From NCBI RefSeq assembly GCF_014647475.1, contig NZ_BMPG01000007.1:4696-68695 (forward strand): a stretch of DNA of 64,000 bases, given 5' to 3'. Shown in pieces: positions 61,056-61,770 of the stretch (position 1 is the first letter of the stretch; each line of letters starts with the position of its first letter). Position numbers and translations under genes: made by a program. The notes under the pieces are model-generated. The model saw only the letters and a program-made list of their open reading frames with translations, was not told where the DNA came from and ran no database searches. The DNA comes from Halocalculus aciditolerans (lineage in GTDB: Archaea; Halobacteriota; Halobacteria; Halobacteriales; Halobacteriaceae).

Positions 61056-61290
61056 GCTCACGGCTCCCGCTGGTCGCCGTTCGCTTCTACGCGGTTCTCA
61101 CTCCTCCCTGCGGTCTGCTCACGGGTCGCGTTGCTCCCCGTTCGCTTCTACGCGGTTCTCACTCCTCCCTGCGCTCTGCTCGCGTGTCGCTTCGCTCCCG
61201 CTCGCTTTTCCGCGGTTCTCACTCCTCCCTGCGGTCGTCGTTCCGAACCGCGTCGTCGTTCCGAACCGCGTCGTCGTTCCGAACCGGCTC
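61056..61290. repeat. intergenic repeat element, copy C: three about 60 bp tandem units, each ending in the core cgcggttctcactcctccctgcg, followed by 3 x 18-bp gtcgtcgttccgaaccgc
   Basis: Core copies sit at 61090-61112, 61151-61173 and 61211-61233, with the 18-bp units at 61233-61286. The element overlaps the 3' end of nfeD, and both the repeat-encoded tail and the stop codon come from the element. Confidence 0.85.
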
Positions 61291-61770
61291 ATCGACTGCT
61301 TCGACGGTGATCACGTTCCCGCCGCCGGGGTCGGTGACGACGATACGGGTGCCTTCGGGGATTTCGCCGGTGGTCGAGCGAGCGGCGTAGGTGGAGTCGA
61401 AGCCGGCGCTGTCGAGTTCGACGCGGCCGTCGCGGTCGGTGATCGGTTCGAGCGCGTAGCCTCGCTTGCCGACGAGGCCGGCGGACCCCTCGGTCTTGCT
61501 CGCTTCGCCGCCGCCGATGACGGAGTAGCGGCGGTAGCCGTAGAGGGTCGCCGCGCCGACGAAGAGCACGATGGCGGCGAGCGCCCACGGCGAGGAGGCC
61601 GCGGGGACGTAGAGGCCGACGAGGCCGGCGACGAGGAGGGCGACGCCGACGACGATGAAGTGCGCGCCGGGCGCGAACGCCTCCATGACGCAGAGCGTCA
61701 CGCCGGCGACGACGAGCAGGAACGGGAGCGAGAGTCCGAACAGGGTGACTTCGAGCAGGGTAAGCTCCAT
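61219..61770 (-). CDS. NfeD-family membrane protein (short form), operonic with the SPFH gene, carrying a repeat-encoded C-terminal tail
   Basis: Two N-terminal TM helices plus a C-terminal OB-fold beta-barrel (GTRIVVTDPGGGNVITVEAVDE). The last 22 aa (PVRNDDAVRNDDAVRNDDRREE) are encoded by the 18-bp tandem repeat and the core of repeat copy C. Confidence 0.8.
   Translation of the reverse strand: MELTLLEVTLFGLSLPFLLVVAGVTLCVMEAFAPGAHFIVVGVALLVAGLVGLYVPAASSPWALAAIVLFVGAATLYGYRRYSVIGGGEASKTEGSAGLVGKRGYALEPITDRDGRVELDSAGFDSTYAARSTTGEIPEGTRIVVTDPGGGNVITVEAVDEPVRNDDAVRNDDAVRNDDRREE

Follow-up and report, generated by a model that had tools for sequence, protein, structure and literature searches.

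The 64,000-nt stretch of Halocalculus aciditolerans DNA analyzed here (contig NZ_BMPG01000007.1, positions 4,696 to 68,695; hereafter the window) carries near one end an nfeD gene whose last codons and stop codon coincide with a dispersed hairpin repeat. The coding sequence, including its TGA stop, spans 61219..61770 on the minus strand and encodes 183 aa according to the list of open reading frames (ORFs). A similarity search returned 532 homologues with E <= 1e-5 (lowest E 3e-74), many of them named NfeD family protein. The product has the N-terminal membrane domain and C-terminal OB-fold of that family, with 37 invariant columns over the 30 haloarchaeal sequences of our alignment, and the Pfam models stay below their cut-offs (NfeD, 22.9 bits with a cut-off of 29.1; NfeD_membrane, 20.9 bits with a cut-off of 26). 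Directly downstream lies the partner expected of an NfeD, an SPFH/Band_7 gene (59609..60829, minus strand; Pfam Band_7, E = 3.8e-44), and the gene order pyk-DUF7312-nfeD-SPFH-HTH is common to the window and Halospeciosus flavus.

Past the OB-fold the nfeD frame runs into the repeat. The translation ends in ITVEAVDE-PVRNDD-AVRNDD-AVRNDD-RREE and the stop, with GGGNVITVEAVDE before PVRNDD and no in-frame stop further 5'. The first-pass annotation, which was made from the letters alone, had placed the end of the OB-fold near ITVEAVDE and the TGA inside the core of the repeat, and both can be read in the ORF translation. On the minus strand, the last nfeD codon ahead of the repeat is GAG (E, 61290-61288) and is followed by 22 repeat-derived codons (PVRNDD AVRNDD AVRNDD RREE, 61222..61287) that are not present in the two closest NfeD relatives, which come from Logan assemblies (L002 and L003, with 81% and 76% identity). 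These codons comprise three tandem 18-nt copies of the 5' hairpin arm of the element ([C/G]CGGTTCGGAACGACGAC, 61234..61287, by pattern search and Tandem Repeats Finder), namely unit 1 (CCGGTTCGGAACGACGAC, 61287-61270), unit 2 (61269-61252), and unit 3 (61251-61234), and then, still in frame, CGCAGGGAGGAG (61233-61222). The TGA (61219..61221) sits at the junction between the loop and the 3' arm of the first hairpin of the element (GGAGTGAGAACCGCG) and overlaps the start of GAGAACCGCG.

The three units had been described as exact AVRNDD repeats, which holds for units 2 and 3 (0 mismatches) but not for unit 1, which begins with C rather than G, differs by this one base, and encodes PVRNDD. Tandem Repeats Finder reports 61234-61286 as 2.9 copies at 100%, and the pattern search for the 18-nt unit gives 10 matches where 1.1 are expected by chance. 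A core, GGTTCTCACTCCTCCCTGCG, occurs three times with a 61-nt period (61093, 61154, and 61214; chance expectation 0). The observation is confirmed and lies far past chance.

The same head of the element recurs at 63.9 kb in noncoding DNA, inverted relative to the nfeD copy (63881..64000, plus strand), where six exact 18-nt units (63881-63988, 6.0 copies at 100% in Tandem Repeats Finder) are followed by CGCAGGGAGGAG up to the end of the window. The two heads form an inverted repeat of 73 nt that is 96% complementary (61222-61294 and 63928-64000). The length of 22 aa given earlier for the tail and the six units given for this second array are both correct, and in its acidity the tail resembles those of other haloarchaeal NfeDs. 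Because the same array and junction occur here outside any gene, because noncoding DNA of several haloarchaeal genera contains a module with the 18-nt unit as its conserved 5' arm, and because the array is missing from the closest NfeD relatives, which end sooner, the data support an origin of the tail and stop in the repeat and not in nfeD, as the first-pass annotation had proposed.

Behind the nfeD stop the body of the element continues toward the SPFH gene. Three tandem units of 60–61 nt, each made of the 3' arm, a second hairpin, and a loop and each containing GGAGGAGTGAGAACCGCG, occupy 61040..61220 on the minus strand. Tandem Repeats Finder reports 61056-61236 with period 61, 3.0 copies, and 87% matches, and a covariance model of the element matches 61176-61258 (67.3 bits) and 61054-61136. 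Beyond these units lies what appears from recurring CGTGAGC motifs (60976 and 60932) to be a decayed distal part of the array (60867..61039, minus strand), a stretch that is not found in the short intergenic regions of the relatives. The gap between nfeD and SPFH is 389 nt in the window vs. 60 and ~110 nt in the relatives. Right before the SPFH start, a promoter-like motif, CCACCTGTACATTTATGG (60849..60866, minus strand), is identical or near-identical in all three species (L002, 590-610; L003, 835-855). This motif probably marks SPFH's own promoter, so that SPFH need not be cotranscribed with nfeD.

Comparison of the copies reveals a module of two hairpins. Hairpin 1 consists of a 5' arm, CGCGGTTCGG (GCGGTTCGGA[A/G]CGA; CGCGGTTCGGA[A/G]CGA), a loop that often ends in GAGTGAGT, and the 3' arm GAGAACCGCG; hairpin 2 follows as GCGAACGGGGAGC, 3–4 nt, and GCGACCCGTGAGC. 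Both have GA/GA internal loops and GC-NNN-GC tips. At nfeD, hairpin 1 (61211..61251, minus strand) pairs GCGGTTC with GAACCGC across a 27-nt loop and folds with −18.7 kcal/mol (z = −3.75). With 41 nt, an 8-bp stem, and z values of −3.75 and −4.04, hairpin 1 agrees with the description of bacterial repetitive extragenic palindromic (REP) sequences as imperfect palindromes of 20–40 nt that form a stem-loop. Among 20 nonidentical copies, 93.4% of the pair cells are standard, vs. 26–42% in controls with slid partners, and compensatory double changes affect seven pairs in 26 cells, a covariation score that was reached by 0/500 shuffles. The stem of hairpin 1 alone exists in five perfectly complementary versions (CGCGGTTC/GAACCGCG, CGTGGTTC/GAACCACG, CGCGATTC/GAATCGCG, CGAGGTTC/GAACCTCG, and GGCGGGTC/GACCCGCC). 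These compensatory base changes support both predicted hairpins. G-U and A-C pair cells are about equally frequent (9 vs. 7), and there is no asymmetry that would separate action as RNA from action as single-stranded DNA.

Amplification is common in the family and takes two forms. The 5' arm is repeated in tandem with periods of 14–18 nt (four times in Natrialba magadii and three times in the copies L018, L015, and L025), and whole units are repeated with periods of 56–92 nt. The head of the nfeD copy aligns with that of a copy at 5.5 kb over 41 nt and no gaps. Judged from these alignments, the apparent AVRNDD microsatellite is the amplified 5' arm of the element and the 61-nt repeat its amplified body.

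If the tail belonged to NfeD itself, orthologues without the repeat should share it. Most haloarchaeal NfeDs continue after the OB-fold with DDIDRELxR and then an acidic stretch of variable length (proteins of 162–231 aa), and the NfeDs of the Halocalculus clade have lost the DDIDRELxR motif. The two closest relatives, which have neither 18-nt nor 61-nt repeats in the DNA of the locus, end in ITVEEVAEE-stop and in VDESVEPADTGDGSDVDEE-stop (DVDEE-stop), 4 or 16 codons past the OB-fold, and carry no VRNDD tail.

The junction is also present in a second strain (L005, Logan SRR25395476), the sole other strain in the comparison. Exact matches to NfeD, pyruvate kinase, and SPFH were absent from the contig index, and the 54-aa DUF7312 alone led to this strain. 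Its junction, GAG-CCGGTTCGG, and its three units are those of the window, and because the junction is identical an assembly or sequencing artifact can be excluded. Short-read assemblies break at these repeats, and the L005 contig ends exactly at the array. Outside the array, the two strains differ at 2 positions in ~1650 unique nt; the 54-nt array holds 3 nonsynonymous differences vs. 2 in the 1648 nt outside it (P = 2.9e-4). The L005 units read GGAGCGACGAC, GGAGCGACGAC, and GGAACGACGAC, which is also the Natrialba pattern (repeats of GGAGCGAG and then GGAACGA); the window units all carry GGAAC, as do the six units at 63.9 kb.

This concentration of differences, together with the slippage-prone nature of perfect tandem repeats and the contrast between three and six units at the two loci, might suggest an adaptive contingency locus in which the array is kept because unit number tunes the length of the NfeD tail or switches the gene. 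We consider this quite improbable. The hypervariable tail length that had been suggested on first inspection is not supported, with three units in both of the strains compared. Phase variation fails for a structural reason: the 18-nt unit is six codons inside the frame, and a change in copy number can neither shift the frame nor switch the gene. Units gained or lost would alter only length, and the position of the stop is set by the loop of the hairpin. No on/off mechanism exists, and shifts of frame or promoter spacing, as in phase-variable contingency loci, do not occur here. Haloarchaeal NfeD tails are conserved neither in length nor in sequence, and arm amplification in noncoding copies marks it as a property of the element rather than of nfeD. 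The differences within the array point instead to slippage or gene conversion under relaxed constraint.

Far from being a local curiosity, the nfeD repeat belongs to a family that is widespread and whose copies normally lie against stop codons. Within the window the covariance model finds four loci, all on the minus strand (4509-4580, 5561-5741, 32581-32766, and 61054-61258); the truncated head at 63.9 kb, recognized by its identical units, is a fifth, and a weak, decayed match near 35.2 kb may be a sixth. The first copy (4509..4580; 27.8 bits, E = 2.5e-4, outside the training set) has the compensatory stem variant GGCGGGTC/GACCCGCC and starts directly after the TAG of a GHMP-kinase gene (GAGGAGTAG-GCGGGTCGG, the hyphen marking the boundary between gene and element here and below). 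The second consists of two ~91-nt units (5538..5741, minus strand; covariance model 74.9 and 28.8 bits) immediately after the TAA of the PcrB/GGGP synthase gene (5736-6434), with the junction GCGTAA-CGCGGTTCGG. The third consists of two ~92-nt units (32581..32766, minus strand; stem GTGGTTC/GAACCAC) immediately after the TAA of a radical-SAM/HHH gene (32761-34458), with the junction GAGTAA-CGTGGTTCGG, and within this copy GAGTAA again precedes the next head at the unit boundaries. At the orthologous GHMP-kinase stop of one related species the element is also present, which indicates that it has long persisted in place.

Outside the window, a metagenome scan with two conserved blocks (GAGAACCGCG-N4-6-GCGARCGGGRAGC) yielded 15 genuine loci on contigs of 57–68% GC. 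Copies without terminal inverted repeats typically begin 0–6 nt past the stop of the upstream gene and in sense orientation, as in TAAG-CGAGGTTCGG after a gene ending in GGMGGMM (L007) and TAGG-CGCGGTTC (L012). The junction TGAGGGAAA-CGCGGTTC is one locus seen over several samples (L011, L014, L019, and L021). Other metagenome copies without inverted repeats lie 25–110 nt past a stop. GTAA or GTAG precedes the head at five junctions (4.5, 5.5, and 32.7 kb, L007, and L012) and at internal boundaries (32.7 kb and L009) and is lacking at nfeD, at 63.9 kb, and in L011/L014, a small sample in which the tag is inseparable from stop codons.

A BLAST search with a consensus found the family at 29 places, none of them in annotated DNA, on 10 Natrialbaceae plasmids (hosts Natrialba, Natronorubrum, Natronococcus, Natrinema, and Halomontanus). 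In this form the module is the core of a MITE (miniature inverted-repeat transposable element) with inverted repeats of ~45 nt (cTATAGTAGCCACTG...CAGTTGTTACTATAG; cTATAGTAGCCACTGcAAGTCAcTGCACACCTGATCGCACGACGG ... CGATCAGTGTGTAAcTAGTTGCAGtTGTTACTATAG) and is not linked to stops. Two N. magadii plasmids hold eight and six family places. Among the plasmid copies L022–L029 (pNMAG01/02 of N. magadii, Natronorubrum, Natronococcus, and Natrinema), the minimal copy, L028, is hairpin 1 only, and others have up to four arm copies and five unit copies.

This distribution bears on the opposite polarity, in which nfeD would have had the tail ancestrally and the dispersed repeat would derive from copies of the gene's 3' end. 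That EE-stop (GAGGAGT[AG/GA]) closes all three NfeDs of the clade and that NDDAVRNDDRREE weakly resembles DDIDRELDR in its residues would fit such an origin. However, the arm GCGGTTCGGA[A/G]CGA together with the remaining parts of the module is conserved beside unrelated genes on Natrialbaceae plasmids and metagenome contigs, and within the window the module follows GHMP-kinase, PcrB, and radical-SAM genes. The distribution contradicts an origin in nfeD, which we find barely credible.

Several further searches and candidates concern the extent of the family. Rfam gave no match at gathering score within 60000-64000; a subthreshold match to the eukaryotic IRES_Bag1 over the 18-nt array (63729-63973, plus strand; 28.1 bits, gathering 37) is taken as chance. 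A scan of a genome collection for the nfeD-specific core GCAGGGAGGAGTGAGAACCG, a pattern that is too specific, returned one chance match in a Hyphomicrobiales metagenome-assembled genome, and viral contigs scanned for the family gave no match. No relevant paper came up when the motif strings were searched in full texts, and a curated transposon-database entry for the Natrialbaceae MITE form may exist. An Hsp20 gene (34778-35188, plus strand) was considered as a second element-tailed gene on account of a match at 35141-35239 (21.8 bits) and its GAGTGAG stop, and was rejected: its tail, GANGVDVSE, is the ancestral G-x-x-(I/V)-x-V-T-(D/E) tail seen in 21 homologues, and the arms there are not complementary. 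In the Halocalculus clade Hsp20 stops at GANGVDVSE, while the majority of homologues run on into acidic extensions. About 27 nt downstream of the gene is a decayed copy of the family (35213-35300, plus strand). The metagenome copy L010 had been guessed from the string GTTCAAATCC to follow a tRNA, and this was rejected when ARAGORN found none; just upstream of that family copy (~3490-3600, minus strand) lies a separate long palindrome, GTGGGATTTGA...TCAAATCCCAC.

Together, these results make it probable that nfeD has no stop of its own past the OB-fold and takes its TGA and the 22 codons before it from the 5' end of one copy of a dispersed REP-like hairpin repeat. At the nfeD site, exceptionally for the family, the stop appears to have been lost or displaced and translation to enter the element. 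The end of nfeD in the closest relative and the GHMP-kinase junction of the window both read GAG-GAG-TAG-GCG, and the nfeD junction of the window reads GAT-GAG-CCG-GTT-CGG; against those two it shows a clean 6-nt gap, with GAG-TAG missing and GCG/CCG-GTT-CGG in frame. The simplest path begins with an element abutting the nfeD stop, which would then have been deleted in frame (6 nt, GAG-TAG), so that translation would have continued as far as the next stop in frame, the TGA of GGAGTGAGAACC. The arm would have been duplicated by slippage, and the nfeD array may have been homogenized with the 63.9-kb array by gene conversion, as is suggested by window units that all carry GGAAC like the six at 63.9 kb.

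Alternatively, the element or an expanding array may have entered the 3' end of nfeD directly, displacing in a single step both the ancestral tail and the stop. The DDIDRELxR-acidic tail of most haloarchaeal NfeDs is indeed missing here, the window intergenic region is ~300 nt longer, and the nfeD loci of the two closest relatives give no match to the covariance model. However, these relatives also lack the DDIDREL tail, the loss of which therefore predates the array, other family copies sit after intact stops and not within frames, and the junction differs from that of L002 by the clean gap of 6 nt. We regard direct insertion as rather unlikely. Direct insertion is what the first-pass annotation had suggested. 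Its interpretation as a whole is half right, with support for a tail and stop supplied by the repeat and none for hypervariability or phase variation.

Some observations weigh against a tail acquired from the repeat through stop loss, among them the absence of the element from the relatives' nfeD loci. The stop-loss path would rest on a 6-nt gap in one alignment. The tail of L003 resembles the consensus unit to a degree that only 0.2% of random window segments match, which is no more than suggestive, and the tail of L002 does not reach that level. The alignment sets NDDAVRNDDRREE against DDIDRELDR with about half of the residues matching, which we regard as an effect of composition. The copy at 63.9 kb is not at a gene 3' end, and the rule that copies abut stops is not absolute. 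As a protein the tail is predicted, read from the DNA frame, and the exact NfeD sequence is not in a collection of 15 billion proteins, in which the pyruvate kinase, DUF7312, PcrB, and Hsp20 of the window have counterparts of 100% identity, with NCBI accessions, from the same H. aciditolerans contig. The exact SPFH protein is likewise not in the collection.

The absence of NfeD from a collection that contains its neighbors would fit a gene in decay, with the extension marking a pseudogene or an untranslated 3' region, a reading we consider very improbable: the 161 codons ahead of the tail are all intact, with 81% identity to the closest relative, the residues invariant across the 30 homologues are all kept, and the second strain has no differences in the gene core. 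A start annotated elsewhere, flagging as a pseudogene, or incompleteness of the collection could explain the missing NfeD and SPFH entries.

The tail derived from the element is probably a neutral, tolerated by-product, because the NfeD tails of haloarchaea vary and are acidic and SPFH apparently keeps its own promoter. Its consequence for NfeD by itself is probably minor, a neutral 22-residue acidic tail where tails already vary. The inverted pair of arrays brackets nfeD, DUF7312, and pyruvate kinase (2.6 kb), and recombination between the two could invert this segment; the second strain has it in the same orientation as the window. The six-unit array, oriented away from the pyruvate kinase gene, begins 43 nt upstream of that gene's start codon (63839-63881), and a T-rich stretch directly adjoining the array could be the pyruvate kinase TATA box.

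The wider interest of the tail is that it exposes a structured repeat family spread across haloarchaeal genera, with compensatory changes and not in Rfam, that resembles bacterial REPs in keeping close to stop codons. For annotators of haloarchaeal genomes, it would give reason to expect elongated or altered C-termini beside these repeats. We tentatively propose, with rather less than even confidence, that the repeat is an undescribed archaeal counterpart of the bacterial REP sequences and bacterial interspersed mosaic elements (BIMEs): a two-hairpin module conserved in at least two families of Halobacteria, the Halobacteriaceae, to which H. aciditolerans belongs, and the Natrialbaceae. It would either home to GTA[A/G] sites, with stop codons as those that a high-GC genome tolerates, or be kept after stops as an RNA 3'-end element; it would be moved by a putative single-strand DNA transposase or, in Natrialbaceae, as a MITE core, and it would occasionally rewrite protein C-termini, as at NfeD. 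The family offers a concrete test case for REP-type mobilization in archaea. Haloarchaeal terminators are poorly understood, and the family is also a candidate for a role in forming mRNA 3' ends or in mRNA stability.

Comparison with known systems places the locus and the family as follows. As in other haloarchaeal NfeD-SPFH operons, a membrane domain is joined to an OB-fold, the Band_7 gene adjoins, and synteny is conserved; unlike in the usual operons, DDIDRELxR is missing and repeats of 389 nt separate the two genes. Rickettsia palindromic elements are reportedly palindromic repeats translated within host proteins and inserted in frame inside genes, whereas at nfeD only the 3' end and stop codon are replaced. 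The Natrialbaceae copies, which lie between inverted repeats and are internally amplified, resemble MITEs with an internal minisatellite such as that of Porphyromonas gingivalis (PMC4596501). In contrast, the Halocalculus copies, the nfeD copy included, have no flanking inverted repeats and do not classify as MITEs.

Like the palindrome-associated transposable elements (PATEs) of Haloquadratum walsbyi (Dyall-Smith et al. 2011, PMC3119063), the family is haloarchaeal, built of palindromes without terminal inverted repeats, too short for a transposase gene, and apparently placed beside a short target oligonucleotide. Unlike the tandem units of the family, PATEs consist of two near-terminal palindromes around a core, and their palindromes and TTAC target are unrelated in sequence (PMC3119063). 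None of five family motifs matched the PATE palindromes in the supplementary tables of PMC3119063, where a single GCGGTTC at an ISNph12 end is incidental, and with different palindromes and the TTAC target the family falls outside the PATEs.

The closest known analogue is the bacterial REP/BIME class, likewise made of short, GC-rich, imperfect palindromes that are extragenic and single or clustered. The family differs in its archaeal host, in its two-hairpin module with GA/GA internal loops and GC-NNN-GC tips, and in units amplified as direct tandems rather than in alternating orientation. REP-associated transposases have not been reported in archaea, where only IS200-type TnpA is reported (PMC6006769). 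Some family copies have a GTA[G/A], inseparable from the stop codons, at the 5' side of the hairpin, where GTAG-tagged REPs carry their tag (PMC3733652), and the termini of those bacterial elements, some of which lie within ORFs, often supply the TAG stop of flanking ORFs (Di Nocera et al. 2013, PMC3733652).

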